DNA from: an archaeon
GTDB taxonomy: Archaea > Iainarchaeota > Iainarchaeia > Iainarchaeales > JAAZKV01
Length of the DNA stretch: 64,000 nt
Direction of reading: 5' to 3'
Assembly (NCBI GenBank): GCA_041661245.1
Contig: JBAZUY010000001.1
Coordinates: 156,355-220,354 of the forward strand
Positions 6,554 through 61,585 of this stretch are shown here, piece by piece. Below the pieces are notes generated by a model, which was not told the DNA's origin, did no database searches, and saw only the letters and a list, made by a program, of their open reading frames with translations. The stretch's first letter is position 1; every line of letters starts with the position of its first letter. The position numbers and the translations under genes are program-made.

Positions 6554-7540
6554 TTAATTTCCACTTAAAGCATTATTGTATAATGCATTAACATCACTTG
6601 CACTCAAAGCTTTATTCCAAATAGAAATTTCCCCAATTTTTCCTTTGAAATTTACTTTGTTTGGGTCAGCATCAGGCACAATATCCCCAAATCTTATTCC
6701 GGGGCTTGTAGCATTTCCAGTCCCATATGCCCCAGCAACTAATGAAACTCCGTTCAAATAAATACTTTTGAAATTACTACTTTTTGAAGAAACAACTGTT
6801 AAAAGATACCACTTATCTTTTTCCATCAAAACTGAATTAAAAATATCCTTTTCAACGCCACACGAATTATCTATGTTGAAGGAACAAACATAAAATATCA
6901 AATCCTGGTAATAATTTCTTAAAAAAACACCCCCCATATTATTCCCACTAGCCACGTTAGTAATAAACAAACCATAATTTTTTCCATCTCCGGAATCAAC
7001 TAAAGTAAAGCCTGGAGATAACCAAACGGAAATAGTTCTTTCAATACTATTGGGATAAGTATCTAAAGAAAGAACATCATTTTGTCCATCAAATTGCAAA
7101 GCATTCTCACCAAATAAACCAACCACCGGAAGTGGACAAGAATCACCAGAGCAAGTTAAAGAATTCTCGCCAATTGTATCTGCAACTTTCCCCCCAACAA
7201 CATTGTCCATTCTCCAAACAGAATTCAATTCAACAACTAACGGATCTGATTTCAAGTAATAATGATTATTCACCCTATAATACGCCCCACTAGTTTCTTT
7301 GAGTTGATCAAATGAACTATTCGCAGAAGTTATTCCAGAAATACTTTGCTGTTGACCTTGATTCAAAACACTTGTGATTGCAATTGTAACAATTGCTACA
7401 ACCAAAATCGCAGCACCAATAATCAACAAATACTCAATCGCACCCTGTCCACGCAAGTGGGCCTGCGCCCTAGAATTATCAAAAAACATATCCACAATAG
7501 CACTTTTCCACTTAAAAAACTCTTCGAAAAGTCCTTTCAC
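6554..7540 (-). CDS. Archaeal type IV pilin-like protein (class III signal peptide) with LamG/ConA-like C-terminal domain
   Basis: RGQGAIEYLLIIGAAILVVAIV matches the archaeal prepilin (K/R)G-Q..EY hydrophobic-stretch pattern. The true start is probably the internal Met (MFFDNS...). C-terminal ...KGKIGEISIWNKALSASDVNALYNN resembles LamG jelly-roll ends. Confidence 0.6.
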   Translation of the reverse strand: MKGLFEEFFKWKSAIVDMFFDNSRAQAHLRGQGAIEYLLIIGAAILVVAIVTIAITSVLNQGQQQSISGITSANSSFDQLKETSGAYYRVNNHYYLKSDPLVVELNSVWRMDNVVGGKVADTIGENSLTCSGDSCPLPVVGLFGENALQFDGQNDVLSLDTYPNSIERTISVWLSPGFTLVDSGDGKNYGLFITNVASGNNMGGVFLRNYYQDLIFYVCSFNIDNSCGVEKDIFNSVLMEKDKWYLLTVVSSKSSNFKSIYLNGVSLVAGAYGTGNATSPGIRFGDIVPDADPNKVNFKGKIGEISIWNKALSASDVNALYNNALSGN

Positions 7541-10571: not shown

Positions 10572-11903
10572 TTGTTGAAGAAACTTGCACTACTATTATT
10601 ACTATTACTAGTACTAAGCACGGCTGTAAGCGCACTAAGTTCGGATGAAGCAATAGCACTTGTTTCAGTAAAAAATAATTACTTACTAACAGGGGAAAGC
10701 GCAACTACTACAAAAGACCCAATAACCTACCAAGGAAGCCAATACTTAGTTGTTGCAACAATGTCAGGAGATGCTGTAACTTGCTACATCCCAATTAGAA
10801 GTTCTGATTCAAAAATAGCAACACTTGATCTTGAAATAAGAGAAATAATCAAAACAACAATTGCTTATTCTAAAATGACTGAACTAAAAAATAATACTAC
10901 TCCTGCAGACTGGCCATTTTCATATTCCACTAAAAACTTTTTTTATGATTTGAGTAATGATTTCACAAGCCTCGCAAACGATATTTTAAGCACACAAACA
11001 ATACTAAACGGAATTGGAACTACAGAAGCAAAAACACTCGCACTACAAGTTGGTTTGGCAAAAAATGCTGCTGAAGATCTTTCAGACAAAAGTAAAACAC
11101 TATCAACACAAATAGAAACTTCAAGACTTTATGAAGAAAGTTATTTATCCGGCCCGGACACAAATAAAACAAATAAATACGAAACAAATTACAAAAACTT
11201 TTTTACTTCAGTTGCGGATTTTAAACAAGAATTTGTGGATTTACAAACAACCATCACTGAAATTAATCAAGGAGTAAGCACACTTGATCCATCAAAATTA
11301 ACTACAGACCAGCAAAAAACCTACCAAATATTACTTACAAAAGTACCAATAGCAATCTCAAAAGGAACAAGAACTAACCCAGGAAAACTTGACTCATTCT
11401 TTAGCACAACAGACCAATTACGAACAATGATTGAAGGAGTATTTAATTCTTCAAGAAACTCAGAGGGATACGCTACCACACTTGATGCAAGAAAAGTAAG
11501 AAGCGACGCATGGATCAAACTATATGGAACAAACGAAACAATGACTAAATTAGACCCAAGTTTTACTACACTGCAAAAAGCAGCCACTGCAGTATTATCC
11601 ACTGAAAATGTAGATTATTGGAAAGACCAAGATTCCGTAGAAGCACTAAAAGTAAACTGGAACGGAGCAGAACAAAGATACAACAATTCAGAGTACACAA
11701 AAGCAAAAGAATACGCACTAAAGGCAGAAAAAAATGTTACTAGTATAATGAGCCAAGGATTAAAACAAACAGAAAGTCCAATTAACCAAGACCTAATAAT
11801 TAAAATAGTCGGAGGACTAGTAATACTACTAATAGGATTATTCATTTTTGAGAAATACAAAGCAAAGAAAAAAAATAAAGAGGACGAGTACAATGAAGCA
11901 TAA
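10572..11903 (+). CDS. Surface protein (signal peptide, C-terminal TM anchor, Lys-rich tail)
   Basis: N-terminal LALLLLLLLVLSTAVSA; C-terminal IVGGLVILLIGLFIFEKYKAKKKNKEDE. Confidence 0.55.
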   Translation: MLKKLALLLLLLLVLSTAVSALSSDEAIALVSVKNNYLLTGESATTTKDPITYQGSQYLVVATMSGDAVTCYIPIRSSDSKIATLDLEIREIIKTTIAYSKMTELKNNTTPADWPFSYSTKNFFYDLSNDFTSLANDILSTQTILNGIGTTEAKTLALQVGLAKNAAEDLSDKSKTLSTQIETSRLYEESYLSGPDTNKTNKYETNYKNFFTSVADFKQEFVDLQTTITEINQGVSTLDPSKLTTDQQKTYQILLTKVPIAISKGTRTNPGKLDSFFSTTDQLRTMIEGVFNSSRNSEGYATTLDARKVRSDAWIKLYGTNETMTKLDPSFTTLQKAATAVLSTENVDYWKDQDSVEALKVNWNGAEQRYNNSEYTKAKEYALKAEKNVTSIMSQGLKQTESPINQDLIIKIVGGLVILLIGLFIFEKYKAKKKNKEDEYNEA

Positions 11904-17112: not shown

Positions 17113-17673
17113 TTAGAGCCACAAAAAGAAAAGAAATGCAAGAGTGTTTGCACAAAAACTTAATGCAACAAGTTCAGGTTCGCTCAGTTTTGAAATAATG
17201 GCAACAAGTTTCTTTCCAGTGTCATTAGGCAAGGGTGCTGCAACAATCCATCCTGCAAGAGCAAAAGAAGCATAGTTAACTAATTTCCTGCCAAACCAGT
17301 TCTTTGAAAAAAAACCATTCAATTGAATTAACTGTTTATCTTTAACATGAATAAAATCATTCTTGAATAATCTCCTAATTAACCTAAAAATGGATAAATC
17401 CACTATTACAGCCCCAATTCCTGCAAGTAAAGCCGCTGCAAAAATATCCGGAACGTACGTATTAACCATAAATGAAGCTGAAAAAGGAGCAAGTATTCCA
17501 AAAGGAAACAATGCCCCGGCAATAAAAACAAAAATATATGCGGTATTCCCTAAGCCAGTTGCCCATTGCAAAAGATCTTTATTTAGAAATGGTAAAAATG
17601 AAATCGCTATTAAAATAAGCAACACCCAAAGCTTTGGATACTTAATTCGCAAGAAAAGTTCTTTGGAAAACAT
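17113..17673 (-). CDS. Polytopic membrane protein (DedA/TVP38-like?)
   Basis: Multiple hydrophobic helices; no catalytic motif. Confidence 0.45.
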   Translation of the reverse strand: MFSKELFLRIKYPKLWVLLILIAISFLPFLNKDLLQWATGLGNTAYIFVFIAGALFPFGILAPFSASFMVNTYVPDIFAAALLAGIGAVIVDLSIFRLIRRLFKNDFIHVKDKQLIQLNGFFSKNWFGRKLVNYASFALAGWIVAAPLPNDTGKKLVAIISKLSEPELVALSFCANTLAFLFFLWL

Positions 17674-17786: not shown

Positions 17787-18407
17787 ATGAACAATAAAGT
17801 AAAACTCCTTTTACTTGGATTAGTACTTATCCTATTCTCAGTAAGTGCCCTTTCAATTGCTTCTCCAGAACAAGGAAAATCAATTGCATTTTATTTACAG
17901 ACAATTAACGCGAGTCTTTTAGGAAACCAAACTACTACCCAACAAACCACTCAAATTACTACTACAGGAACAGGCACAAGTGTTATTGCAAATCAACAAA
18001 CACTCACTGCAGAATGTATTGAAAGAGTTTTAGTTCAATATGATTCCCCTGTAAAAAATATGGGACTTGGAGAAAAGATTATTAGTGAAGCAAAAAAATA
18101 CAACATTGAAGCAGGATATGCATTAGCAACTTTTAGAGCAGAAAGTACTTTTGGAAAAAATGGTTATGCAGTAGATAACAAATCAATTGGAAATAGGAGA
18201 GATACTAGCGGAAACTTTATCAAATACAATACATGGGAAGCAGGAATAGAGGATTGGTTTAGTTACATCAACAGAAAGTACATTAGCGAAAAGATTACAA
18301 CTGTAGAAACAATTGCCCCAATTTATGCTCCATCCTCGGAGAATAATACTGCAAAATATATTACTGACATTACTGGATTCATGGCACAACACAAAGGAAT
18401 GTGCTGA
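17787..18407 (+). CDS. Secreted protein with glucosaminidase (GH73/FlgJ)-like domain
   Basis: Signal peptide LLLGLVLILFSVSALSIA. ALATFRAESTFGKNGYAV resembles the GH73 A-x-A-x-x-E-S-x-x-G catalytic-Glu block. Assignment is tentative. Confidence 0.45.
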   Translation: MNNKVKLLLLGLVLILFSVSALSIASPEQGKSIAFYLQTINASLLGNQTTTQQTTQITTTGTGTSVIANQQTLTAECIERVLVQYDSPVKNMGLGEKIISEAKKYNIEAGYALATFRAESTFGKNGYAVDNKSIGNRRDTSGNFIKYNTWEAGIEDWFSYINRKYISEKITTVETIAPIYAPSSENNTAKYITDITGFMAQHKGMC

Positions 18408-18417
18408 AATTGTCACA

Positions 18418-19203
18418 TTAAATAATGGACCTCATTACTTTTAGTCTTTCTTTTGCGAACGCTTCGGACTCAACAAATGCGGAAGTTTTATCATTAATCG
18501 TATTTGAGGAAACCATAACCAATTCCCCGTTAGTAAGTGCAAATACTTTGTCTGAAAAAAGTAAAGCGTCATCAGGATTATGAGTGACAAAAATTGCAGA
18601 AATGTTTCGGGATTTAAGTATTTTTCTTAAATCTTTAATTAGTTTTTCTTTTACATTCCAATCAAGCGCACTAAAAGGTTCATCAAGCAAAAGCACTTTT
18701 GGATTAGCTGCCAAAGCTCTTGCAATCGCAACGCGTTGTTTTAATCCCCCCGAAAGTTCTTTTGGGAGTTTATCTTTATCATCAAGAACCCCAAGCAGGA
18801 CTAAATTCTTCAAAACAATTTCCTCTTTTTCTTTATCAGTTACTTTTTTTGAAAGAAGCCCCAAAGCAACATTTTCATACGCATTCTTCCATTCAAGAAG
18901 ACCAAGTTCTTGGAACACCATTGCTGCAAAAATATCCCCCCTTGACTCGAGATGAACTATCTTTCCAGAAGTAGGAACACTAAAACCCGCAACTAAATTT
19001 AACAAAGTTGATTTACCAGATCCGTTCTTTCCGCAAACTGAAATTATTTCTCCGCAAGAAACTTTCAAATTAATGTTTGAAAGAAGAGAACGTTTTGTTT
19101 CCCCCTTTTGAGCACAAGGATAAGAAAAACTAACTCCTGAAAGATTAAGACAAAGTTCATTCACCATGCGAAACACTCCTCCAAGAAGTAAGTTTTGTTT
19201 CAA
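18418..19203 (-). CDS. ABC transporter ATP-binding protein (NitT/TauT family)
   Basis: Walker A GKNGSGKST, signature LSGGLKQR, Walker B LLLDEP. Overlaps the permease gene. Confidence 0.8.
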   Translation of the reverse strand: MKQNLLLGGVFRMVNELCLNLSGVSFSYPCAQKGETKRSLLSNINLKVSCGEIISVCGKNGSGKSTLLNLVAGFSVPTSGKIVHLESRGDIFAAMVFQELGLLEWKNAYENVALGLLSKKVTDKEKEEIVLKNLVLLGVLDDKDKLPKELSGGLKQRVAIARALAANPKVLLLDEPFSALDWNVKEKLIKDLRKILKSRNISAIFVTHNPDDALLFSDKVFALTNGELVMVSSNTINDKTSAFVESEAFAKERLKVMRSII

Positions 19204-19924
19204 TAACTTGAATTACTTTTTGTAAAATTAAACCAATTACCCCAATGATTAACATTGCTGAAATTACACTAGAAGTATTCAATGAAAAACGATTTATTTC
19301 AATGAAATACCCTAAACCCTGACTTGAAGCAATTATTTCCGCAGCAATAACACACATCCAAGCCCAGCCTATTGCAGTTTTACAACCATTAATCAAATAC
19401 GGAACTGAAAATGGAAATACTATATGAACAAATTTCTGACTAAATGTAAGGGAATAGTTCTTTGAAACTCTTTCACAAACAATTGGGAGCGAAGTAACTC
19501 CAAAATACACACTTGTAAATACTGGAAAGAAACTTGCAAGAAAAATAATAAAAAATGCAGAAGCATCCCCAATACCAAACCACAATATTGCAAGTGGAAT
19601 CCATGCAATTGGAGGAATTGGACGAAGTAACTCAATTATTGGCTTAAGCACTGCATCAATGTATTTGTTCATCCCAGTCAAATACCCTAGAGTACTTCCT
19701 AGAATTAATCCTAACAAAAATCCAATTATTGCCCTGTTTAATGTTGCTAAAATATGAGGAAATATTTCCCCTGTAAAAATTAAAGTAATTAAACTCTCAA
19801 ATACTTCCAATGGCCCTGGAAAAATGAAACTGTTGAAAAGCATTGCAAAAGTTGCCCATATTGAAATGAAGAGAATTGCAGCAAAAACTGCCCCCATCCA
19901 TTTCAATAAATGCTTTTCAACCAT
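19157..19924 (-). CDS. ABC transporter permease (NitT/TauT family)
   Basis: Six-TM ABC permease pattern, immediately upstream of the ATPase. Confidence 0.75.
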   Translation of the reverse strand: MVEKHLLKWMGAVFAAILFISIWATFAMLFNSFIFPGPLEVFESLITLIFTGEIFPHILATLNRAIIGFLLGLILGSTLGYLTGMNKYIDAVLKPIIELLRPIPPIAWIPLAILWFGIGDASAFFIIFLASFFPVFTSVYFGVTSLPIVCERVSKNYSLTFSQKFVHIVFPFSVPYLINGCKTAIGWAWMCVIAAEIIASSQGLGYFIEINRFSLNTSSVISAMLIIGVIGLILQKVIQVIETKLTSWRSVSHGE

Positions 19925-19937
19925 TTTTTCACCAATT

Positions 19938-20933
19938 TTAGTTTACCATTGACAAATCTACTTTGCTATTGAAATCATATCCTTTCTTTAGTATGTTTTG
20001 ATCTCTTGCAAAATCTACTCTTGATTGCAAATCAATTATATCCTCTAAAGTCAAGTCAAAATTCACTTGAGCAATTGTATTTGCATCAAAATTTGGATCT
20101 GTGTAAGAGATTTTTTTTACCACATCTAGATTCATTTTTGCATCTTCTGAAACCCAAGCATATACTTTGTCTTTGTTTTGTGCAAAGTAAAGACTTGATT
20201 CTTTCATTGAATCCATGAATGCTTTTGCAGCACTAGGATTTTTAGCAATGAACTCTTTAGACATTGTTACAATTGCATAATCTTTTTCGCACACAATAGT
20301 TTCCGCTAGACCTTTAGATTCAAGAGCAACCATTGTACTTTTTCCCCACCCAACCCCATCAACTTGGTTTGAACTCAAAGCTGAAGCAAAATCATTTGGA
20401 CCAATATTAACCAAAGTTACATCTTTGTTTGGAACAAGTCCATTCTTTGCTAATTGCTGATAAACAACAATGAATGGCCCAGAACCAAAAGGAACACCAA
20501 ATTTTTTTCCTTTCAAATCCGCAACAGTACTAATTCCCGAACCTGTTTTTGCTAATAAGCAATCATCAAAGTAAGCGAATTTTCCAACAACTTCCCAACT
20601 AGGATCTTTTTCCAATAAGAATGAAGTTGGAGCCCAACCCATTAACATTACATCCAAATTTTTTGCTGCCGCTGCCTCAGACATTGGAGGACCAGTTAAA
20701 AATGCAGTAAATTTTCCTTCAAGTCCATTCTTTTCTAATATATCTGTTTTAATTAAAGGCTCAGAAACATAAGCGCTCTCCGCGAATGTATTAATCCACC
20801 CTACTCTAACCACATTAGTTTCTTTTGAAGCACTAAGCCCAAAAAACCCGCTTTGCGCTCCAAAGTTCACCGCAACAGCCAAAACAGCTATTGCAAGTAC
20901 TACTCCAATAACTAAACCAATATTCTTATTCAT
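19938..20933 (-). CDS. ABC transporter substrate-binding protein (NMT1/SsuA-like)
   Basis: Signal/TM N-terminus, 331 aa, first gene of the SBP-permease-ATPase operon. Confidence 0.65.
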   Translation of the reverse strand: MNKNIGLVIGVVLAIAVLAVAVNFGAQSGFFGLSASKETNVVRVGWINTFAESAYVSEPLIKTDILEKNGLEGKFTAFLTGPPMSEAAAAKNLDVMLMGWAPTSFLLEKDPSWEVVGKFAYFDDCLLAKTGSGISTVADLKGKKFGVPFGSGPFIVVYQQLAKNGLVPNKDVTLVNIGPNDFASALSSNQVDGVGWGKSTMVALESKGLAETIVCEKDYAIVTMSKEFIAKNPSAAKAFMDSMKESSLYFAQNKDKVYAWVSEDAKMNLDVVKKISYTDPNFDANTIAQVNFDLTLEDIIDLQSRVDFARDQNILKKGYDFNSKVDLSMVN

Positions 20934-20975
20934 TTACTCACCGTAGTAAGTTTCTTTCGCCGGGCATATATACTT

Positions 20976-21770
20976 ATGTGGTATTGGTACAACACCACAT
21001 TTATAAAAAGATTGACAGTTAGTCTTTGTATGGACTTTTCAATAATAAAAAAGCTTGGACTCTCTGATGGAGAAATAAAAGTTTATGAAGTTTTGTTAAG
21101 TAAAGGGGCCTCCCAATTAAATGTGATTCATGAATCAACAGGAATTGAGAGAAGAAACATATATGACATCTTAAACAAATTAATTGAGAGAGGACTTGTA
21201 ACTTACATTAACGAAAATAGAAAGCGAAAATTTCACATCAGCCACCCAAATCAATTAATCCATTATATCGAAGAGAAAGAAAGTGAACTTGAGAAAGTAA
21301 AAGAAGATCTTTCAAAAGAACTCCCGCCCCTAATAAAACAATTTAATGCACGAAGAGAATCCCCAACTGTAGAAGTTTACCGTGGAGAAGAAGGACTAAA
21401 AGCGGTTTGGGAAGATTCCCTAAATTATCCCGAGCTATACTGGATTGGGGCTGGGAGATATATTCCAAAACAAATGCCCACTTGGTTTAATTACTGGAAC
21501 AAAAAAAGACTTAAGAAAAAAGTTGTTTGGCACAACTTACTTCGATATGAGCTTAAAAAAGAAACTAAAGAAATGGAATATGAAGAAATCAAATTCCTCC
21601 CTGAAGAGTTTAGTAAAAACCCAACTGTAATCGGAATTTATGGAGATAATACTATTAACGTTTGGACAGCAAAAGGATTCTATTTCGTAGTACTAATCAA
21701 AGATAAAGCAATGGCTGAAAACTATATAGCATATTTCAAATATCTTTGGGATAATGTTGCAAAGAGATAA
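20976..21770 (+). CDS. TrmB-family HTH transcriptional regulator
   Basis: LSDGEIKVYEVLLSKGASQLNVIHESTGIERRNIYDILNKLIERGLV is the TrmB winged-HTH pattern. True start likely MDFSII... Confidence 0.7.
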   Translation: MWYWYNTTFIKRLTVSLCMDFSIIKKLGLSDGEIKVYEVLLSKGASQLNVIHESTGIERRNIYDILNKLIERGLVTYINENRKRKFHISHPNQLIHYIEEKESELEKVKEDLSKELPPLIKQFNARRESPTVEVYRGEEGLKAVWEDSLNYPELYWIGAGRYIPKQMPTWFNYWNKKRLKKKVVWHNLLRYELKKETKEMEYEEIKFLPEEFSKNPTVIGIYGDNTINVWTAKGFYFVVLIKDKAMAENYIAYFKYLWDNVAKR

Positions 21771-21791
21771 ACAGGACTTTACCCCTTACCG

Positions 21792-21850
21792 GCAAAACGC
21801 TTGTGTTTTGGATAAACCCACCTACCCCTGGCAAAACGCTTGTGTTTTGC
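21792..21850 (+). promoter_or_regulatory. Two copies of inverted repeat GCAAAACgcttgtGTTTTGC plus motif copies and TATA-like CTTTAAATA upstream of the radical-SAM gene
   Basis: Read directly: the inverted repeat occurs at 21792-21810 and 21831-21850. Confidence 0.5.
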
Positions 21851-21903
21851 ACCGGCAAAACACTTCCTCTGCTCTTTAAATACCAAAAAATAACAACTAA
21901 TTC

Positions 21904-23250
21904 ATGATTCTTGAGAAACTACAAAAACTAGGAATGGCTGCTAGTTACGATTCATGCGGGGGAGGAAAAGAAAAATCCTTTAGAGAATATGGAATACCAT
22001 ATGAGTATCAAAATTTTATTTACAATTGCACACAATCAAGTGAAAATGTATTCACAAGAAAAGTAATGAATAGTGCAAATAAATCAAATTTAAGGAACAC
22101 AAAACTCTATGAGAAGCAAGAGGTTACAACTCAAGATAAAAAAGAGTTGTGGGGCAAAATGTCAAAAGTTCTTCCAACTTCAAAAAGAGAAGAACTAAAC
22201 AAACCCAATAAGTGCTTACTAATGAAAGTACTTCAAGACAATACCTGTGTTCATGATTGCAATTATTGTGTTAACACTACTTGCAAACAAAAAGTCAGTC
22301 TTGAACCAAAAGAACTAGCTGATTCATTTGAATACTTATGGAAGAATGGATACACAACAGGATTATTTCTTAGCAGCGCAGTACACGGCACACCCGAACT
22401 CAGCACTGAAAAAATGATTGCAAGTACGCGCTTACTCCGCGAAAGAGGATACAAAGGATACATTCACATGAAAGTACTCCCTGACACACCGGATTATTTA
22501 ATTAAAGAAATGGCACTTTATGCAAACAGACTATCAATCAATATTGAATCAACTACCACTCAAGGCTTTGAAGAAATCACTACAACAAAAAACTACAAAG
22601 AAGGAGTATTAAGAAAAATTAATACGCTTGATTTGATTAAGAGGAAAGTTGATCGTGAACAAAACAAAAACGCAGGTTGGTTTTGTGACAATGACCAAGT
22701 AGAAAATGGAACTGATATGCGATTCAAGTCATTTACTACCCAAATAATTATTGGTGCAAACGAAGAAACTGATCAAAACATTTTAGATAGAATGAACTCA
22801 CTCTACGAAGAAACTCAACTCTATAGAACCTACTTCTCCGCTTTCTCCCCAGTAGAAGGAACTGCATTTGAGAAAAGAAAAGCTGAAGACAAAACACGCG
22901 AACATAGATTGTATGAGACTGATTGGTTGTTCCGAGTGTATGGATTCACGAAAAAAACAATTGAAAGTGGACTTAATGAATATGGAAATCTTCCCCGAAC
23001 ACAAGATGTAAAGGAAAGCATTGCGATTGCGAACAAACAACTCTTTCCACTTGACCTTAACTCTGCAACACGAGAAGAACTCTTACTCGTGCCAGGATTT
23101 GGACCAAAAACTGTTGAAAAAGTACTACAAGTACGCGAAGAAAAAAGAATAAGAGAATTTACTGATCTGCTTGAAGTCGGAGTAAGAATCTCAAAATCAA
23201 AAAACTATTTGAATATTGAAGGAAAACAATCAAAACTAACTTGGTACTAA
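21904..23250 (+). CDS. Radical SAM protein with C-terminal helix-hairpin-helix (putative DNA modification/repair radical SAM family)
   Basis: CxxxCxxC motif CVHDCNYC; C-terminal HhH LLLVPGFGPKTVEKVL. Architecture is radical SAM plus a DNA-binding HhH. Confidence 0.65.
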   Translation: MILEKLQKLGMAASYDSCGGGKEKSFREYGIPYEYQNFIYNCTQSSENVFTRKVMNSANKSNLRNTKLYEKQEVTTQDKKELWGKMSKVLPTSKREELNKPNKCLLMKVLQDNTCVHDCNYCVNTTCKQKVSLEPKELADSFEYLWKNGYTTGLFLSSAVHGTPELSTEKMIASTRLLRERGYKGYIHMKVLPDTPDYLIKEMALYANRLSINIESTTTQGFEEITTTKNYKEGVLRKINTLDLIKRKVDREQNKNAGWFCDNDQVENGTDMRFKSFTTQIIIGANEETDQNILDRMNSLYEETQLYRTYFSAFSPVEGTAFEKRKAEDKTREHRLYETDWLFRVYGFTKKTIESGLNEYGNLPRTQDVKESIAIANKQLFPLDLNSATREELLLVPGFGPKTVEKVLQVREEKRIREFTDLLEVGVRISKSKNYLNIEGKQSKLTWY

Positions 23251-23275
23251 GATTTATTCAAAAACCACACACTAT

Positions 23276-24190
23276 TCAAATCCCGCTTTGGGATAATAAT
23301 ATCGCACCAATTACCATGATTCCAATAAAAAGTGCTTTTTGAAGAATAGATTGCTTAGAAATATTTTCCTTCCCCAACCAAGGCGCAAACAAAGTAATCA
23401 ACACGCCAATGGATAAAATGAAAAATGGCTGAAACCCATTCACAATTGAAACTAAGCCAAGCGGAGCAAGGAGAGTAACAAAAGAAAAAAGAAATGCAGC
23501 TAAGATGTTAATTATTTCATTAAAAATATTCAAACCCAATACTTTCCCAGAGTTCTTTTTGAAAACCGCAAAAAACTGTTCGCGATATTGCTTTTTTAGA
23601 AGTAATAAAAGCCCAAAAAGGAAAAATCCTATTTGTTCCCAAAACAGAGTAGTAAAAAAATCTGTTTGAACAGCAACATATTTTAGAATCACATAACTTA
23701 AAGCAATTAAAAAAGAAGCAAACAACATATATGCCAAAACTTTTTTGTTAAAGTGCAATTTTCTAGAGATAAAATTAGTTGAAAGTCCAAACGCACCAAA
23801 TACAATTAACGCACCAGCAACTAATTGCAACCCTGATAAACTTTCCCCCAAAATCAAGAAACTTAAGATTACTCCAAACACCGGAATTGATTGAAAAATT
23901 GGAACAACTTTTGAGGCCTCATCAAGCTTAAGCGCCCAAAAATAAGGAAACATGTAAAGAATGTAAATAAAACCTACAAAAATCATTACAAGTGCGTAAA
24001 ATAAAGAAATCGAGAAAACTGCAGGGTGAATTAAATAAATTACAGGGAGAGTCAAAAGACTAATAAAACTTGAGAACAAAATTAATGCCCCAGTTTCACC
24101 CTTAAAGTAGCCATCAATTAAATATTTGTCAATTCTATTACTAAGCGCAAAAAGAAACGGAGGAATCAATGCAAGCCAAAGCCAATCCAT
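23276..24190 (-). CDS. Polytopic membrane transporter (EamA/DMT-like)
   Basis: About 10 predicted TM helices; 304 aa. Confidence 0.5.
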   Translation of the reverse strand: MDWLWLALIPPFLFALSNRIDKYLIDGYFKGETGALILFSSFISLLTLPVIYLIHPAVFSISLFYALVMIFVGFIYILYMFPYFWALKLDEASKVVPIFQSIPVFGVILSFLILGESLSGLQLVAGALIVFGAFGLSTNFISRKLHFNKKVLAYMLFASFLIALSYVILKYVAVQTDFFTTLFWEQIGFFLFGLLLLLKKQYREQFFAVFKKNSGKVLGLNIFNEIINILAAFLFSFVTLLAPLGLVSIVNGFQPFFILSIGVLITLFAPWLGKENISKQSILQKALFIGIMVIGAILLSQSGI

Positions 24191-24289
24191 AATAAAAGAA
24201 AGAAAACTTCAATTTTTAACTTTGTGGTATTAAAAAATATGTCCAGGAAATAGTGCCCTTCGAGATAATTTAAAAAGTACAAAGTAGTA

Positions 24290-24910
24290 ATGAATAGTAT
24301 GAACTCGCCAGGAAAAAAATCTATTTTGAAGAAAGCAATCTACAAATTAGGAAAAACACGAACTGAAGAGGTAAACTCCAGAATAAAAAGCATAAATCGA
24401 AGACTTGCTAATCGAGATCTCACTAAGGCACGATTCACACTTGTTGAACCATATCACCCGCAATCGTTAGGGCACCTTAAAAGAAATGGACTCCTATTCA
24501 ATCCAAATAAAGGAGGAAACTGTTCAGGGTATGCAACAAGAATTGCAACCGCGGTTTTTGGCAAACAATACACTAGGGGCGCGGCTTGGGAGCTTGCAGC
24601 ATTAAATGAAGTAAGTTACAGAAAACCAAAGAATGCAATTGAAATAAGCAAACAAAGATTGTTAAGACTGATAAGAAAGAATGTGATTAGGCCCGGAACA
24701 ATAATTGGAATATATTACCCAAATAGCCCACAAAATATTAAAGGAAGAGAAAATACTCACGTAATGACTTACGCAGGAGAAGGACAATTTTGGCACAACT
24801 ATGGGGGGCCAAGAGCAATTTCAATAGACTCCATTTACAGTAAAACAAACAAAGAGGGCGAGAGAGTTTTCTTCCCAGTGATTGTGATTAATCCAAAAAG
24901 GACGAAATAA
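24290..24910 (+). CDS. NlpC/P60-like papain-fold peptidase/amidase
   Basis: Catalytic-Cys block GGNCSGYATRI (compare DCSGF) and His block THVMTYAGEGQFWHNYG (compare HVGIYIGNGQFIHA). Basic N-terminus; no signal peptide seen. Confidence 0.5.
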   Translation: MNSMNSPGKKSILKKAIYKLGKTRTEEVNSRIKSINRRLANRDLTKARFTLVEPYHPQSLGHLKRNGLLFNPNKGGNCSGYATRIATAVFGKQYTRGAAWELAALNEVSYRKPKNAIEISKQRLLRLIRKNVIRPGTIIGIYYPNSPQNIKGRENTHVMTYAGEGQFWHNYGGPRAISIDSIYSKTNKEGERVFFPVIVINPKRTK

Positions 24911-24939: not shown

Positions 24940-24986
24940 TTGGCTTAATTAGGCCAACACTTTCGTACTCGCAACTATGCGAGTAC
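24940..24986. terminator. Two hairpins between convergent genes, likely bidirectional terminator
   Basis: Hairpins TTGGCttaattagGCCAA and GTACTCGCAactaTGCGAGTAC (9-bp stem) between convergent genes, flanked by A/T runs. Confidence 0.45.
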
Positions 24987-26141
24987 TTTTGCTTCAGCCT
25001 TTAGTTTATCAGCAAGATCTGTTTTTTCCCAAGTGAAATCAGGATCATTTCTTCCAAAGTGACCATAAGCAGCAGTCTTTCTATAAATTGGTCTTCTTAA
25101 GTTCAATCTATCAAGAATGTCTTTTGGTTTAAGTGGGAAATACTTTCGCACTAAAACAACTATTTTGTCTTCAGAGATTGTATTTGTCCCAAACGTATCA
25201 ACAAATATTCCTGTAGGTTCAGCAACTCCGATTGCATAAGCTAATTGAACTTCACATTTAGTTGCAAGCCCTGCAGCAACAATATTTTTTGCAATATACC
25301 TTGCAGCATATGCAGCACTTCTATCAACTTTAGTTGGGTCTTTTCCAGAGAAAGCTCCTCCTCCGTGTCTACCCATCCCACCATAAGTATCTACAATTAT
25401 TTTTCTTCCAGTTACACCAGTGTCCCCTTCAGGCCCACCAATAACAAACTTCCCAGTTGCATTAATGTGAATCTTTGTATCCTTGTCAAGCATACTGCCG
25501 CAAACAGGAGTGATAACCTTTTCAAAAATGTCTTTCTTTAGTTGAGCCTCAGAAACTATTTCTAAGTGTTGTTGTGCAATAACAACTGCCTCAATTCTTT
25601 TTGGTTTACCATCATCATATTCAATAGTAACTTGAGTTTTTCCATCAGGACCAAGATCTTTTATGATACCTTTTTTTCTCACTTCAGCAAGTTTCATTGC
25701 TAATTTATGCGCAAGCATTATTGGTAATGGCATTAATTCAGGAGTTTCATTGCAAGCAAAACCAAACATCATTCCTTGATCTCCAGCACCCTGTTCTTTG
25801 TTTGAAGATTCATTAACTCCTTGAGAAATGTCAGGAGATTGACCATGTAAAGAAACCCAAACACCAGCATCTTCCCCATCAATTCCAAATAAAGGATTAG
25901 TATATCCAATTTCTTTTAGCACAGTTCTTGCAACTTTTTGCACGTCAACGTAACCTTTAGTAGTAACTTCTCCAGCAACGTGAATTGATCCTGTTGTAGT
26001 TAAAGTTTCAACAGCAACTCTTGAGTAAGGATCTTGTTTTAGTAATTCATCAAGCACTCCATCTGAAACTTGATCACAAATTTTATCAGGGTGTCCTTCA
26101 GTCACACTCTCTGATGTAAAAAAATATTTCTTCTGTTCCAT
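24975..26141 (-). CDS. metK: S-adenosylmethionine synthetase, bacterial/eukaryotic MetK type
   Basis: N-terminal [22 protein letters not shown] is the canonical MetK signature; 388 aa. Confidence 0.9.
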
Positions 26142-30835: not shown

Positions 30836-31528
30836 TTATTCCTTACCTAAATCAGTAGTCCCCAAATAATCCCTTAATAAAACTGGAAGTAATTTACTTT
30901 CAGCTTTTCGCAAATGCTCCTGGTAAGCTCTTCTTTTCATTCTATTTTTTTTTGCAAGTGCATCCAGTGTTGCCCCTCTTGGCCAAGAATAATATTTTTC
31001 ATTAACTGCAAATCGTAATGCATCAGTTTGTTTTTCTGTCAAAAAATCTTTTTCCATTTCTGGGGCCACATCCCCAATTCTTGTTACTTTCAAGTCCCCT
31101 ATTTCATGAAGTTCTTTAAGGACACCTTTTAGACTTTTGAAATCAGTTGTAATAATTGAATGAACATCAACCCCCCCTTTCATTTCAGGAGGCTTAAATA
31201 ATAATGCGCCACTTGCAATTATTTCATCATAACTTGAAGTAGGAACTTTAACTTTAATCATTGCAAGAGTAGTATTTGCCTGACTCTTAAGCAACTCAAC
31301 ATCAACTACTGCGGAATGTTTCTTTAATTCTGAGAAAAAAGCACTCACTTGTTTTTTACTTTCCCCAGTAACATTAATCAACGCCAAATATCCATTTTTG
31401 CCAATACTCTTTCTTATGAATTTCATGGAAACAAGTTTCATTACAAGCCCAGGATAATTTTCTGTAACCTGACTAAAACAGTCATGGTGAAAAATACTCA
31501 AATCAAGAACCTTAACATCTGAATTCAT
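30836..31528 (-). CDS. HTH_10 (bacterio-opsin activator/Bat-type) family regulator
   Basis: C-terminal LTEKQTDALRFAVNEKYYSWPRGATLDALAKKNRMKRRAYQEHLRKAESKLL is the HTH_10 pattern. Sits immediately upstream of uvrC-uvrB. Confidence 0.6.
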   Translation of the reverse strand: MNSDVKVLDLSIFHHDCFSQVTENYPGLVMKLVSMKFIRKSIGKNGYLALINVTGESKKQVSAFFSELKKHSAVVDVELLKSQANTTLAMIKVKVPTSSYDEIIASGALLFKPPEMKGGVDVHSIITTDFKSLKGVLKELHEIGDLKVTRIGDVAPEMEKDFLTEKQTDALRFAVNEKYYSWPRGATLDALAKKNRMKRRAYQEHLRKAESKLLPVLLRDYLGTTDLGKE

Positions 31529-31623: not shown

Positions 31624-32769
31624 ATGAATAAAAAAATAGTAATCGGAGTAATAATAATTTTAGCAATAGTATTAGTAGAAGGGGCAGTAGCAATTAATTT
31701 CTCTTCAAGTACTGGACTTTTTGCCTTGCCCGCAGAAAAAGAAATCTTAATTGGAGTAATACAGCCATTAACAGGAAATGCAGCAAACTTTGGACAAAGC
31801 GGGAAAGCTGCGCTTCTTCTTGCACAAGAGGAAATTAATTCTAATGGAGGAATCAATGGAAATAAAATAAAATTAATTTTTGAAGACTCGCACTGTAGTT
31901 CTGAAGCAGCTACTACTGCTGCACAAAAATTAATTGAAGTAGACAGGGTAAGCGCAATTATTGGGGGAAATTGTTCCTCAGAAACTCTTGCAATTGCGCC
32001 TATTGCGGAGAAAGCAAAAGTGCTTGTTTTGTCAAACGGTTCTTCAAGCCCTGCAATAAGTGATTCAGGAGATTATATTTTCCGAGACTATCCATCAGAC
32101 AGTGTTTCTGGAAAAATAGCTGCAGAATATGCATACAATGTTCTTGGAGCTAGAAGCGCAGCAATTCTTTACTGGCAATCAAATTGGCCAATGGGAATAA
32201 AAAAAGTGTTTAAGGAAACATTTGAAAACCTTGGAGGAAAAGTTATTTTGGAAGATTCATTTTCTACCGGAAGCATAGATATGAAAACCCAATTAACAAA
32301 AATTAAGAATTCAAAAGTAGACGTGGTTTACTTTCTCGCAATGACTACTGAATCATTAACCGGAGTACAACAAGCCAAACAAATTGGTTTAGAAACACAA
32401 ATGATTGGGGGAGAACCTTGGGATGACCAAGCATTGTGGGACTCTGCAAAAGATGCCGGAGAGGGAAAAATATTTGTTGCTCCAAAAGCAAGTGAAAATG
32501 AATGGTTCATTAACGAACTAACCAAACAAAACACTCAAAACATTCCTGGTGCGGCACAAGCATATGATGCACTAAAAATAATTGCTAACGCAATTACAAA
32601 GTGCGGAACTAACGGAACATGTGAAAAGGACTACCTTTACGCAATGCCAGAATACAATGGAATAAGTGGGAAAATACAATTCGATTCAAAAGGAGATTTG
32701 AAAAATCCTCTATTCACAATAAAGAAAATAGAAAATGGAAAAATAATAGAAGTGGCTGACGCAAGTTAG
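31624..32769 (+). CDS. LivJ/LivK-type (type I periplasmic) substrate-binding protein, orphan
   Basis: IGVIQPLTGNAANFGQSGKAALLLAQEEINSNGGINGNKIKLIFEDSHC and later blocks match the branched-chain-amino-acid-binding family. No permease or ATPase nearby. Confidence 0.7.
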   Translation: MNKKIVIGVIIILAIVLVEGAVAINFSSSTGLFALPAEKEILIGVIQPLTGNAANFGQSGKAALLLAQEEINSNGGINGNKIKLIFEDSHCSSEAATTAAQKLIEVDRVSAIIGGNCSSETLAIAPIAEKAKVLVLSNGSSSPAISDSGDYIFRDYPSDSVSGKIAAEYAYNVLGARSAAILYWQSNWPMGIKKVFKETFENLGGKVILEDSFSTGSIDMKTQLTKIKNSKVDVVYFLAMTTESLTGVQQAKQIGLETQMIGGEPWDDQALWDSAKDAGEGKIFVAPKASENEWFINELTKQNTQNIPGAAQAYDALKIIANAITKCGTNGTCEKDYLYAMPEYNGISGKIQFDSKGDLKNPLFTIKKIENGKIIEVADAS

Positions 32770-32795: not shown

Positions 32796-33650
32796 CTATT
32801 TTTTGTTTTCTAATTTTTTCTTTTCTGTTAGGTGCAAATAGTTTTGATTAGTTATTGTACTTTTTCCTGTTTCGGTTTCAATTTCTTTTCTTGTATTGTG
32901 AGCGATTTCTCCCCCTCTTTTCGCTGAACTTTTTAATTCAGGCAATTCTTTTGCATCTCTTGCTTTCGTAATATCGGTTGTTGCTTTTTCTCCAACCATT
33001 GTGAAAATCAATTCCCAATCATTCATGTGATCTCGCAAGTTCTGGTTTTTCTTGGGCACGCTTTTGAATTCTTTGTATTCTTGCACTGTTTTTCCGAATG
33101 TTGCTTTAGTTATTTCGTTTGTTAAAATAGCAAAATCTGTTTCTTGTTTTACTCCTCTTTCTTTCCATTCATCAGTTAACTCTTGCCTTATCGCCATTCC
33201 CCTTAGTCGTTTATCTATCCACTCTTTTGGATAACCTTTGAGTTCATAGTATCCTTTTGCCCTGTTTTGGGCTAGTTCGGGGTTTTCTATTTCTTGTATT
33301 CTTTCATACCCTGTTTTTGCTAGCCATAATTTGAAAGGTTCAGCTTTTGGCGAAGGAATTGATTGGATTATTCTAAATGCACCTTCAGTATTAGCGCAAT
33401 TCATTTGTTGTTTGCCCCCAGCAGTATCAATCGGAAGGGTATGTACAAGTTGTACCCACCCTTTGCTAAGCTCTTCATCTCTTTCACGCATTCTGTTAAT
33501 ATACTGTTTGACATCAGTAGAATCAGTTAATGCAAAGACAATGTCTTCAAGCACAAACCACCATTCTTCCTTGTGCCAAGTTTTTCGTATTTTTTTTCCT
33601 TCAAAAACCGCTAAAGCATTTTCTTGATTCATTAAGTTCACTAATAACAA
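32796..33650 (-). CDS. Bro-N domain protein (phage antirepressor/DinD-like)
   Basis: N-terminal EWWFVLEDIVFALTDSTDVKQYINRM matches the Bro-N/AntA core (WF-V-DV--AL). Confidence 0.55.
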   Translation of the reverse strand: MLLVNLMNQENALAVFEGKKIRKTWHKEEWWFVLEDIVFALTDSTDVKQYINRMRERDEELSKGWVQLVHTLPIDTAGGKQQMNCANTEGAFRIIQSIPSPKAEPFKLWLAKTGYERIQEIENPELAQNRAKGYYELKGYPKEWIDKRLRGMAIRQELTDEWKERGVKQETDFAILTNEITKATFGKTVQEYKEFKSVPKKNQNLRDHMNDWELIFTMVGEKATTDITKARDAKELPELKSSAKRGGEIAHNTRKEIETETGKSTITNQNYLHLTEKKKLENKK

Positions 33651-33716: not shown

Positions 33717-34421
33717 TTAAGGTTTGGCAATCTTCCAAAGTAACCCAAAGTGTTTTCTAAACATGGAAGCAACTAGTTCTGAGCGGATTACTATCGCAAC
33801 CAGATTTGGTTCCCAAATATTGATGTTCACAGTATTCCCGTAAATGAATGTAGCAACTGGACCAGAAAATTCCTCCGAAACATACCGCAGTTCAGTAAAG
33901 TAGACAGGATTATTTCCTTTTTTAGTATAAATCCCATAATATGGAATTTTTTTGCTTTTCATTTCTCTTATCCATTTCTCTCCAAAAAGAGGCAATTTTT
34001 CTCTTAACTGCCCTTTAACCCCATATGCATAAATTGGTCTCCCAACTTGAATCATTTCTCTCCAGGCTGATTTCATTCCCTCAGGGCCTTTGTAAACTTC
34101 AACCAGTATTTCGCTCTTTTGAGATTTGAACAGATCCTGAAGTTCCGGCAAAAAAGTTCCCAATAACTCTTCTTTCTCTTTAATGAATGCATACAAATTA
34201 TTCGGATCAGATGCATGATACCGCGTAGTTTTTCCTTCCTTAAATATTGTCACAAGACCTTTTTCTCTCAACTGCTCAAGCACATCGTATATATTTGTTC
34301 TGTGAAATCCACATTCTTTTGAGATTTCCCTAGCAGTGCAATCATTTAGTTTCAGCACAGCATAGTACACCAAAGCCTCGGCTTTAGTTAATCCTAACTC
34401 CACTAATTTTTCTACACCCAT
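33717..34421 (-). CDS. TrmB-family HTH transcriptional regulator
   Basis: LTKAEALVYYAVLKLNDCTAREISKECGFHRTNIYDVLEQLREKGLV. Confidence 0.7.
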   Translation of the reverse strand: MGVEKLVELGLTKAEALVYYAVLKLNDCTAREISKECGFHRTNIYDVLEQLREKGLVTIFKEGKTTRYHASDPNNLYAFIKEKEELLGTFLPELQDLFKSQKSEILVEVYKGPEGMKSAWREMIQVGRPIYAYGVKGQLREKLPLFGEKWIREMKSKKIPYYGIYTKKGNNPVYFTELRYVSEEFSGPVATFIYGNTVNINIWEPNLVAIVIRSELVASMFRKHFGLLWKIAKP

Positions 34422-44835: not shown

Positions 44836-44919
44836 ACGCAGAGGCCGAGATTCGAACTCAGGTACCCTTTCGGATAACGGGTTAGTAACCCGCCGCATTT
44901 GACCGCTCTGCCACCTCTG
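44836..44919 (-). tRNA. Class II tRNA (Ser-type; discriminator G) with apparent anticodon ACU
   Basis: Reverse complement is GCAGAGG-TG-GCA-GAGCGGTCAAA-TGC-G-GCGGG-TTACTAA-CCCGT-[long variable arm]-CTGAG-TTCGAAT-CTCGG-CCTCTGC-G. The 7-nt loop TTACTAA places ACT at positions 34-36. No CCA encoded. Confidence 0.7.
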
Positions 44920-45108
44920 CTTGAAGACTTTCCGCCCCTTCAGGACCAAGTGAAACTTTTGTTTCACGGGTCAAGCAAAAGCCTTACTTTTGCTTTGACG
45001 TGTGCCCCCTCGCTTCGCTCGGTGACACTGATTTATTACAAATTATGCATTCACAGAGAATTAAAAACTTAACCAAAAACCTAATTCAAAAAAAAAGGTA
45101 GAATTTAT

Positions 45109-50540: not shown

Positions 50541-51266
50541 ATGCCGGACGCAACCAAAATAGAGACTATTAGCGAACTTTTGAAAGCCGCCAAATGGCTT
50601 GAGGGAAAAACACTTGCAGAGATTTCAGATAGCATAAAAGACGAAGATTTTGTTCCAAGAGTATCATCAAAAGCTTATGTTGGATACGTTATTGAGAAAG
50701 GGTATTTTCAAATAGAACGAAACAATGATTCTAAACCAGATTTTCCCCAACTCGGAGTTGAATTAAAAACCTGCCCTTTAAAATATAATAAATCAAAAAC
50801 TAAGCTTACTGTTAAAGAACCGCTTTCTTTGAATATAATTAATTATAAGTTAGAATGTCAAAATACTGATTTAACTGAATCATCTCTATTTAAGAAAAAT
50901 AGAACTATTTTGTTTGTATTTTATATTCACGATTTTGAGAAAAAACGCTCAGAATATTTAATTAAATACACCTTTATCTGGCATATGGATAAACAAGTTA
51001 TTTCTGAGTTAAATCCGGATTATCTGAAAATAATCAAAATGATAAACGCAGGAAAAGCACATGAGATTCATCAAGACCAACATAAATATTTGACTATTTG
51101 CCCAAAACACGGAGGCAAATTCAAAGACCCTCTTTGCAAGAAATCAAAGACTACCCAACCATTTAGCAAAGCTCCTGCCGAAGTAAGGGCGTTTAGACTC
51201 AAAAATGCATATGTTGATTTAATAATTTCTCGAGAATTAGAAACAAATCCCTACTGGCCCCGTTAA
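50541..51266 (+). CDS. MutH/Sau3AI-family restriction endonuclease
   Basis: DFPQLGVELKTCPL closely matches the MutH catalytic block DFAALGVELKTIPV (D...E-x-K). Confidence 0.65.
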   Translation: MPDATKIETISELLKAAKWLEGKTLAEISDSIKDEDFVPRVSSKAYVGYVIEKGYFQIERNNDSKPDFPQLGVELKTCPLKYNKSKTKLTVKEPLSLNIINYKLECQNTDLTESSLFKKNRTILFVFYIHDFEKKRSEYLIKYTFIWHMDKQVISELNPDYLKIIKMINAGKAHEIHQDQHKYLTICPKHGGKFKDPLCKKSKTTQPFSKAPAEVRAFRLKNAYVDLIISRELETNPYWPR

Positions 51267-61544: not shown

Positions 61545-61585
61545 TAAAAAAAAAATAAAAACGATTAGAAACTTAATATAATTGA

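Follow-up and report, generated by a model that had tools for sequence, protein, structure and literature searches.

Two open reading frames (ORFs), designated ORF-A and ORF-B, in a 64-kb stretch of archaeal DNA (hereafter, the window) are read here, with moderate confidence, as two independent resident genes encoding divergent single-domain members of peptidoglycan-cutting superfamilies, ORF-A acting on bacterial murein and ORF-B being a thiol hydrolase. A preliminary description of this DNA had treated the span 17787-24910 as one feature, holding a GH73-like secreted protein and an NlpC/P60-like peptidase in a reduced-genome archaeon. Both genes lie where it placed them and carry the motifs that it quoted (AESTFG in ORF-A, NCSGY in ORF-B), and both resemblances hold up in family-wide matches, predicted folds, and catalytic residues across 52 relatives of ORF-A and 79 of ORF-B. 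The span itself, on the other hand, is not a single feature.

At the level of fold and catalytic residue, the evidence supports ORF-A as a divergent, single-domain GH73-type protein. The Pfam profile PF01832 matches residues 97-200, over profile positions 3-119 of 123, with E=4.3e-5 and 24.6 bits, which is better than chance but short of the curated gathering score of 30.2. The same profile is matched in 7/7 members (best E=4.4e-6) of a family that a word-indexed search delimited as 7 clusters. Structure prediction, which the preliminary description had proposed alongside profile searches, bears out the assignment. AlphaFold gives a confident domain over residues 62-206, mostly with predicted local distance difference test (pLDDT) values of 80-94, and the top 13 matches of this model in a Foldseek search of the PDB are GH73 structures (probability 0.97-1.0). 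The best scores belong to LytB (7pj3, E=2e-5) and Ecd09610 (8yxk, template modelling (TM) score 0.71, root-mean-square deviation 2.3 A), with further GH73 matches to AtlE, Auto, TM0633, and FlgJ; GH23 and goose-type lysozymes come lower in the list than the GH73 glucosaminidases. The domain is, on this model, predicted to have a lysozyme-like GH73 fold. Alignments made with HMMER and hhalign place RAESTFGK of ORF-A (within FRAESTFGKNG, which includes Glu119) onto ALESNWGR of LytB and IHETGNG of Ecd09610, with Glu119 on the Glu of the catalytic motif, and the W-E...Y-A-P segment onto VDEG...KYAP of Ecd09610. A PHROG endolysin family is also matched (E=5e-6), NCBIfam gives a 15-bit match only, and profile A1, run against PDB chains, yields weak GH73 and phage-lysin matches (E 0.01-0.35).

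GH73 enzymes are characterized by a lysozyme-like fold, an invariant Glu serving as general acid on a central helix, and a mobile beta-hairpin, with a second, hairpin-borne carboxylate about 31-39 residues downstream that is not universal (PMC4752226). In ORF-A, Glu119 is invariant among the relatives (52/52), together with Tyr180, Ala181, Tyr191, and Pro88, and three further positions are nearly so: Trp150 (51/52), Glu174 (50/52), and position 185, which is acidic (Glu or Asp) in 49/52. Glu151, located 32 residues past Glu119, is invariant in the 7-member archaeal clade, and only a minimal beta-hairpin, around residues 136-147, is present in the model. Cys77 and the C-terminal Cys206 co-occur, and do so only in this clade, a pattern that suggests a Cys77-Cys206 disulfide in the exported protein. 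The signal peptide, also claimed earlier, is recognizable by its basic n-region followed by hydrophobic residues 7-25 (mean Kyte-Doolittle (KD) hydropathy 2.71), the cleavage site being judged by eye. A clearly hydrophobic signal or anchor precedes the domain in 17 of the 19 relatives checked, L043 having a moderate one and L024 none.

ORF-B matches PF00877, the profile of NlpC/P60 (MEROPS family C40), with E=0.034 and 14.6 bits; the match is better than chance but does not reach the cut-off of 23, and ORF-B is, therefore, classed at the superfamily level and not as a member of PF00877. The profile is matched in 3/9 close relatives (best E=3.8e-4) and in 2/79 wider relatives, and ORF-B itself has no match in NCBIfam or PHROGs. 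The AlphaFold model is confident over residues 78-206 (pLDDT 84-97), and about 45 top Foldseek matches in the PDB are almost exclusively NlpC/P60 proteins (probability 0.99-1.0; TM score, by target, 0.43-0.58), for example, Thermus thermophilus 4xcm, MepS/Spr, LytE, RipA, CwlO, Acd24020, and a Trichomonas NlpC. In the fold search of BFVD, NlpC/P60 tail lysins and endolysins come top, and profile A2 retrieved nothing relevant among PDB chains.

Alignment with E. coli MepS, the query sequence of which was verified as identical to PDB 8xud over residues 28-188, links this predicted fold to a catalytic apparatus. Using hhalign, the trimmed family profile A5 of ORF-B aligns with MepS at 87% probability (E=3.9e-6), and Cys, His, and His fall one to one in the segments GNCSGY/IDCSGF, THVMTYAG/RHVGIYIG, and QFWH/QFVH, with a spacing of 12 between the two triad histidines in both proteins. 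Cys78 lies in GGNCSGY and both histidines, His157 and His169, in THVMTYAGEGQFWHN; the model has helix 78-90 starting at Cys78 and a beta-hairpin flanked by the two histidines. The preliminary description had made both assignments depend on the conservation of catalytic residues and, besides Glu119 of ORF-A, it is found for Cys78 (77/79) and His157 (79/79) of ORF-B, position 169 being His in 55 relatives, Gln in 8, Glu in 7, and Asp in 7. Variation among His, Gln, Glu, and Asp is the expected behaviour of a third triad residue. Model and alignment together point to a papain-like alpha+beta fold with a non-permuted Cys-His order and to a conserved, putative Cys78-His157-His169 triad.

Table 1. 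Features of ORF-A, ORF-B, and the genes between them (positions in the window).
Feature	Position	Strand	Remarks
ORF-A, complete gene, 206 residues	17787..18407	+	Secreted GH73-like (lysozyme-fold) glycosidase; = 'MAG: hypothetical protein WCW44_05755 [archaeon]'
ORF-A residues 1-25	17787..17861	+	Sec-type signal peptide MNNKVKLLLLGLVLILFSVSALSIA, then SPEQ
ORF-A residues 26-65	17862..17981	+	Low-complexity Thr/Gln-rich linker, predicted disordered; pLDDT <50 for residues 20-61
ORF-A residues 66-206	17982..18404	+	GH73-like catalytic domain (PF01832, Foldseek, conservation)
ORF-A Glu119 codon (RAESTFG)	18141..18143	+	Predicted general acid, on helix 109-123 (DSSP)
NMT1-type ABC transporter, three genes	18418-20933	-	Binding protein, permease, ATPase; between ORF-A and ORF-B
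TrmB-family regulator			Between ORF-A and ORF-B
Radical-SAM/helix-hairpin-helix (HhH) protein			TIGR03916-like; between ORF-A and ORF-B
EamA transporter			Between ORF-A and ORF-B
ORF-B, complete gene, 206 residues	24290..24910	+	Very basic NlpC/P60-superfamily cysteine hydrolase
ORF-B residues 1-70	24290..24499	+	Lys/Arg-rich, isoelectric point (pI) 11.1, low-confidence helices, no hydrophobic segment
ORF-B residues 71-206	24500..24907	+	NlpC/P60-like catalytic domain, pLDDT 84-97
ORF-B Cys78 codon	24521..24523	+	Predicted nucleophile, N-terminus of helix 78-90 (DSSP)
ORF-B His157 codon	24758..24760	+	Predicted general base, start of strand 157-163
ORF-B His169 codon	24794..24796	+	Predicted third triad residue, end of strand 166-169

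ORF-A and ORF-B are resident chromosomal genes under purifying selection, and neither is a recent import. Each protein has an identical counterpart in an NCBI record labelled 'MAG: archaeon' (MAG, metagenome-assembled genome), and both lie on a 788-kb contig; the public annotation of ORF-B begins at Met4 (nt 24299, 203 residues; WCW44_05185). The surroundings of the two genes, which include the housekeeping genes TatD, MetK, and UvrB, are syntenic in the related loci L002, L005, L006, and L007, whose proteins are about 70% identical. The neighbours of ORF-A are common to L002 (MTS methyltransferase, PLD, DUF7793, TatD, and a 186-residue membrane protein) and L006, and the order EamA - ORF-B - MetK - UvrB is kept in close relatives. 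The GC content of ORF-A (0.341) and its GC content at third codon positions (GC3, 0.217) are genome-like. The ratio of nonsynonymous to synonymous substitutions (dN/dS) is 0.16 for ORF-A against its L006 ortholog and 0.13 for ORF-B, values that are qualitative only, with dS at about 1.35 and near saturation. ORF-A is not a recent import, therefore, in view of synteny, host-like composition, and purifying selection. Contamination or misbinning of a bacterial contig was considered and rejected, since archaeal markers lie within the 64 kb of the window, ORF-A has a host-like composition, and synteny is kept.

The two genes do not form one locus or operon. Within the 7.1-kb span, six unrelated genes of mixed orientation separate them, and the block of ABC transporter and TrmB regulator is an indel relative to L006. 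There, the orthologs of ORF-A (68% identity) and ORF-B (74%) are 3 kb apart, with HicAB, the radical-SAM gene, and EamA between them, and this linkage indicates that the two genes co-occur in the clade. Nothing shows that they are functionally coupled, and they are not co-oriented neighbours. A parallel may be drawn with the prophage lysin Ecd09610, which fuses GH73 and NlpC/P60 domains that are each active alone (PMC9405191), but this would be an analogy, not evidence. In a comparison of window positions 18418-21770 with L006 positions 3463-3925, a HicA/HicB-like toxin-antitoxin pair replaces the ABC transporter and the TrmB regulator, and the region is, therefore, an indel hotspot. The NCBI locus tags of the two genes (WCW44_05755 for ORF-A, WCW44_05185 for ORF-B) are about 114 genes apart, yet the genes are 6 kb apart in the window, and an exact look-up of the ORF-A protein in the contig index returned nothing; the public MAG may have been assembled or ordered differently. 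Divergently oriented from ORF-A, at 17113-17673 (-), lies the gene of the 186-residue protein, a polytopic membrane protein that has no Pfam or PHROG match. Its adjacency to ORF-A is kept in L002 and L006 (83% identity, dN/dS 0.10), relatives that are too close to prove a functional link.

Several traits set ORF-B apart. Its pI is 10.55, with 38 Lys and Arg against 12 Asp and Glu, and Cys78 is its sole cysteine. Compared with MepS, it carries two insertions, located past the Cys helix and before the His strand, which hold the most conserved non-catalytic residues of the family: Ala99-Trp100 (78/79), Asn106, Ser146 (75/79), and Asn149. Many relatives possess an N-terminal transmembrane anchor (an anchor-like segment exceeds a KD value of 1.6 in 26/79, and more exceed 1.2), which is visibly deleted in the window protein and its closest relatives. 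Word-indexed searches gave 4 and then 9 relatives, and an exhaustive search with a hidden Markov model over 1.84 billion representatives gave 220 at E up to 1e-3, so that the family numbers at least 220 clusters at 50% identity. Pfam recognizes very few of the 79 relatives: NLPC_P60 in 2, CHAP in 2, and LRAT in 1, with LysM in 2 and DUF218 in 1. All organism-named members, including distant ones (E 1e-19 to 1e-9), are Candidatus Iainarchaeum, Diapherotrites, or an unclassified 'archaeon'. They occur as singletons among archaeal housekeeping genes, and no conserved partner genes beyond close-relative synteny were found near them (L003/L004, L005-L009, L068, L069). Given the exclusively archaeal names, these singleton contexts, the kept gene order, and the low dN/dS, the family looks old and lineage-enriched and does not look like a recently borrowed bacterial weapon.

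The distribution of the ORF-A domain is different. In a scan of GTDB species genomes, 57 loci were found, one of them archaeal and syntenic (L010, which lies on the contig of L002). The loci that follow in similarity, with 33-42% identity, belong overwhelmingly to Chloroflexota (Chloroflexia, Roseiflexaceae, Dictyobacter, Thermogemmatispora), in which the domain forms the C-terminus of membrane-anchored proteins of about 340 residues. A few relatives from other DPANN lie inside very large proteins with an N-terminal hydrophobic segment, namely, L046 ('archaeon' MAG, 777 residues), L049 (Undinarchaeota, 2015 residues), and L053 (Micrarchaeota, 928 residues), and others come from Gammaproteobacteria, Myxococcaceae, and bacteria of the candidate phyla radiation (CPR). 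One IMG/VR contig also carries a relative. Another relative, P0007 (40% identical to ORF-A), is encoded at 1856-2509 of L001, a 38-kb contig (JGI 3300062781) with small co-directional ORFs, an AEP-type primase, and a tyrosine integrase, as in a plasmid- or virus-like element. In a bootstrapped neighbour-joining tree of the domain, P0007 pairs with Dictyobacter, and the window clade is monophyletic (100%) and stands beside a Chloroflexota-rich group, not within it; the root of this tree is arbitrary, and the direction of transfer cannot be read from it. A bacterial origin of ORF-A is plausible, as GH73 is overwhelmingly bacterial, and so is acquisition across domains, given the signal peptide and the bacterial, mostly Chloroflexota, affiliation of the nearest outside relatives. 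The suggestion of 'horizontally acquired weapons' thus survives in part: acquisition remains plausible for ORF-A but is unsupported for ORF-B, whose named relatives are all archaeal and which has no export signal, and neither gene arrived recently.

The mechanism proposed for the pair begins with ORF-A being exported via the Sec pathway, its Thr/Gln linker, probably glycosylated, carrying the compact GH73-type domain. Glu119 on the central helix would act as the general acid that protonates a beta-1,4 N-acetylglucosaminyl bond, and Glu151, or the acetamido group of the substrate, would supply the second catalytic function. We infer, with somewhat better than even confidence, that the substrate is the murein glycan strand of neighbouring bacteria, attack on which would kill these neighbours or yield wall fragments. 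The predicted Cys78/His157/His169 thiol hydrolase of ORF-B would cleave an amide or gamma-glutamyl-type peptide bond, and the location of this bond in the murein stem peptide is proposed tentatively, at rather less than even weight. In the window clade, the N-terminal membrane anchor has been lost from ORF-B, which is highly cationic.

Several observations weigh against this reading. Both proteins stay below their Pfam gathering scores, and the Pfam scan found no recognisable wall-binding domain in ORF-A and no recognisable wall-binding or accessory domain in ORF-B. No residue of ORF-A stands out clearly as the second GH73 carboxylate, Glu151 being present in 35/52 relatives and Glu174 and Glu/Asp185 being alternatives. 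For ORF-B, only one of five AlphaFold models is confident (71.9 against about 50), Ser replaces Cys78 in two close relatives (P0013 and P0015), profile A5 gave only a marginal match to Tae2 among PDB chains (E=0.37), and the GC3 value of 0.314 slightly exceeds the range of 0.18-0.27 in the other genes measured. Upstream of Cys78, there is no signal peptide or anchor (maximum KD -0.43), and ORF-B may, therefore, never meet a cell wall. All DPANN-host pairs known to us involve archaeal hosts, and we know of no DPANN-bacteria interaction that has been shown in culture.

Comparison with characterized enzymes gives a measure of the divergence. ORF-A is similar to GH73 enzymes (LytB of Streptococcus pneumoniae, the Clostridioides difficile prophage lysin Ecd09610, Staphylococcus aureus AtlE, and FlgJ) in its predicted lysozyme-like fold, its extracytoplasmic location, the invariant central-helix Glu in A-x-x-E-S-x-x-G, and the W-E...Y-A-P segment common with Ecd09610. 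It differs from them in being an archaeal gene product with 11-19% identity to the solved structures and a score under the Pfam cut-off, in consisting of a single domain without choline-, SH3b-, LysM-, or PG_binding modules, and in having a very short beta-hairpin and its own Cys77/Cys206 pair. About 5% of archaeal genomes have been reported to encode modular peptidoglycan hydrolases, with DPANN 'Nanoarchaeota' prominent among them, and the haloarchaeal PF01832 protein Danwoldo, like an M23 protein, was found to kill a bacterium (Strock et al. 2025, PMC12352652). ORF-A is like Danwoldo and the other archaeal modular hydrolases in being archaeal and secreted, in its PF01832-type domain, and in its proposed antibacterial role, DPANN being reported as rich in such genes. 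Danwoldo, a haloarchaeal protein, bears a Tat signal and two PG_binding_1 domains; ORF-A, by contrast, has a signal of the Sec type, is free of binding domains, and is chromosomal and syntenic, not plasmid-borne or patchy within its clade. A single GH73 domain without a binding module can bind and lyse cells (PMC9405191). Peptidoglycan degradation by means of GH23 enzymes has been proposed for Woesearchaeota (Vigneron et al. 2022, PMC9723730). These lytic murein transglycosylases are likewise DPANN-encoded, of the lysozyme superfamily, and predicted to be extracellular with a proposed murein target (PMC9723730), but they represent another family and mechanism than GH73, are large multidomain proteins, and belong to another DPANN phylum.

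ORF-B is similar to the NlpC/P60 D,L-endopeptidases (E. coli MepS/Spr, Bacillus subtilis LytE and CwlO, Mycobacterium tuberculosis RipA) in its predicted papain-like alpha+beta fold and, with MepS in particular, in the Cys at the N-terminus of a helix, the Cys...His...His order, the 12-residue His spacing, and the aligned motifs GNCSGY/IDCSGF and THVMTYAGEGQFWH/RHVGIYIGNNQFVH. It is unlike them in its two insertions (Trp100; Ser146/Asn149), its pI of 10.5, its lack of a lipoprotein or Sec signal and of SH3b or LysM, and its membership of a family essentially invisible to Pfam. In being small and single-domain, with no signal peptide of its own, it is also reminiscent of the type VI amidase effector Tae2 (PDB 6win) and of phage tail lysins, which are delivered by other machinery, and the Tae2 profile match to ORF-B is aligned at the His strand. 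This similarity is weak (E=0.37), and a search of the vicinity of ORF-B revealed neither a secretion or injection apparatus nor an immunity gene or viral surroundings.

The strongest competitor, which we regard as somewhat unlikely but serious, is that ORF-B is not a cell-wall enzyme at all, but an intracellular or membrane-peripheral amidase, peptidase, or acyltransferase that is functionally unrelated to ORF-A and takes as substrate a small molecule or lipid, or else a peptide, whether imported or endogenous; examples would be the processing of gamma-glutamyl peptides as by YkfC and chemistry of the LRAT or CHAP kind. This would explain a protein without signal peptide, anchor, or wall-binding domain, whose lineage-enriched family occurs as singletons in housekeeping contexts and scatters its few Pfam matches among NLPC_P60, CHAP, and LRAT; the insertions with Trp100, Asn106, Ser146, and Asn149 also suggest a remodelled substrate groove. 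Nevertheless, the N-terminal transmembrane segment of many relatives would put the domain outside the cell, LysM occurs in two relatives and DUF218 in one, the best structural matches are peptidoglycan endopeptidases, and a pI of 10.5, odd for an enzyme of the cytosol, would be typical of a protein binding an anionic envelope. On another reading, ORF-B could represent an unrecognised Iainarchaeota-enriched NlpC/P60-fold family, with conserved groove residues of its own (Trp100, Asn106, Ser146, Asn149), acting as a lineage-specific surface or host-interaction enzyme and not as an autolysin borrowed from bacteria; leaderless and possibly released or delivered non-classically, it would form with ORF-A a kit for breaching bacterial walls. 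This we consider unlikely.

An alternative for ORF-A, also improbable in our judgement, replaces murein by another glycan containing N-acetylglucosamine, such as the chitobiose core or glycans of S-layer glycoproteins, belonging to an archaeal host or to the archaeon itself, or chitin-like polymers, with a role in attachment or remodelling at the DPANN-host contact. The archaeal nature of the known DPANN hosts fits this view, as do the missing peptidoglycan-binding module and the giant surface-type proteins (777-2015 residues) in which other DPANN embed the domain. The lysozyme fold is compatible with chitin as well, and a Ralstonia chitinase is among the Foldseek matches (probability about 0.9), but this GH23 chitinase is outranked by GH73 peptidoglycan hydrolases, and beyond the clade, the closest relatives are membrane-anchored proteins from Chloroflexota, bacteria that contain murein.

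It is very improbable that the two genes are left over from a virus or mobile element (as an endolysin or tail lysin) and have no cellular role. Such an origin is hinted at by the mobile-element-like contig of P0007 (AEP primase, integrase), the IMG/VR match and the PHROG endolysin match of ORF-A, the integrase and phage metallopeptidase near the P0015 locus, a Bro-N/Ant-like viral gene elsewhere in the window, and the known occurrence of GH73 with NlpC/P60 in a prophage lysin (PMC9405191). Both genes, however, sit among housekeeping genes (TatD, MetK, UvrB) in an order kept in relatives of about 70% identity, no viral genes are adjacent to either, the composition of ORF-A is genome-like, and dN/dS, read qualitatively, stays at 0.13-0.16.

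Equally slight are the prospects of a remodelling role, as autolysin or pseudomurein hydrolase, in a wall belonging to the archaeon or to a methanogen host, whether this wall is made of pseudomurein, as the preliminary description had also envisaged, or is murein-like. The source metagenomes of the relatives may contain methanogens, and cleavage of an isopeptide bond would, in principle, lie within the reach of ORF-B as a thiol hydrolase. The glycan of pseudomurein, though, has beta-1,3 links to N-acetyltalosaminuronic acid and is not a GH73 substrate. No match to Peptidase_C71 (Pei) was obtained for ORF-A or ORF-B at E up to 1, the 64-kb window yielded no genes of the Mur type, and pseudomurein is restricted to Methanobacteriales and Methanopyrales (PMC11915815). 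Finally, chance resemblance, with neither protein being a hydrolase, would agree with the Pfam scores under the gathering thresholds but is effectively refuted by the family-wide profile matches, the predicted folds, the one-to-one catalytic alignments, the conservation in 52 and 79 relatives, and purifying selection.

The concept of archaeal wall hydrolases has already been published; the novelty here lies in two divergent representatives with a single domain each and in an NlpC/P60-like family that is enriched in Iainarchaeota and barely detected by Pfam. Peptidoglycan-directed enzymes constitute the most direct genomic hint that DPANN may interact with bacteria too, and not with archaea alone. 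The published screen required a catalytic and a wall-binding Pfam domain, and ORF-A and ORF-B, being single-domain and sub-threshold, fall outside its definition (Strock et al. 2025, PMC12352652). A two-domain survey at Pfam thresholds systematically misses divergent single-domain enzymes of this kind, and the true frequency in DPANN could, therefore, exceed the reported value of about 5%. ORF-A, which is small, single-domain, and probably disulfide-stabilised, would lend itself to direct expression. Should either protein lyse bacteria, the idea of 'archaeal antibacterials' would extend to DPANN of the Iainarchaeota type and help the search for partners, and a two-enzyme kit for glycan and peptide would point to DPANN-bacteria interactions. 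Should neither do so, they would exemplify wall-hydrolase folds recruited for archaeal envelope or metabolic tasks.

The remainder of the window agrees with the archaeal, reduced-genome context given in the preliminary description. Besides the 'MAG: archaeon' record, archaeal hallmarks comprise a class III signal peptide, an HTH_10 regulator, four TrmB regulators, and a DRG-type GTPase with a TGS domain, and the GC content is even at 34%. Bacterial-type genes are also present (MetK, UvrABC), as is usual in DPANN genomes. These features support a small-genome DPANN-type archaeon as host, probably related to Iainarchaeota.

Other genes of the window are reported for completeness. Next to ORF-B, at 24975-26141 (-) and in an adjacency kept in relatives, the S-adenosylmethionine synthetase is the bacterial/eukaryotic three-domain MetK (PF00438/02772/02773, E down to 1e-68), not the archaeal PF01941. 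The 284-residue Bro-N protein encoded at 32796-33650 (-), with matches to phrog_15286 (E=4e-77) and to anti-repressor Ant families, is a virus-derived gene inside the archaeal chromosome; its neighbours are a periplasmic-binding-protein gene (31624-32769) and a TrmB regulator (33717-34421), and the HTH_10 regulator lies further upstream (30836-31528). A MutH/Sau3AI-like endonuclease (50541-51266, +) adjoins a C-5 cytosine DNA methylase (51302-52594, -), the two being likely to form a type II restriction-modification pair. At 6554-7540 (-), an archaeal class III (pilin-type) signal peptide precedes a concanavalin-A-like lectin domain (Laminin_G_3) in a candidate surface adhesin. No Pfam match at E up to 1e-5 was obtained for ORFs of 701, 443, and 538 residues at 2905-5010 (-), 10572-11903 (+), and 59251-60867 (-). 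ARAGORN predicts, at 44837-44920 (-) and 61584-61670 (-), a tRNA-Ser whose ACT anticodon puts an unusual A at position 34 and a tRNA-Leu(TAG), the latter unreported by the Rfam tRNA model at its gathering score.

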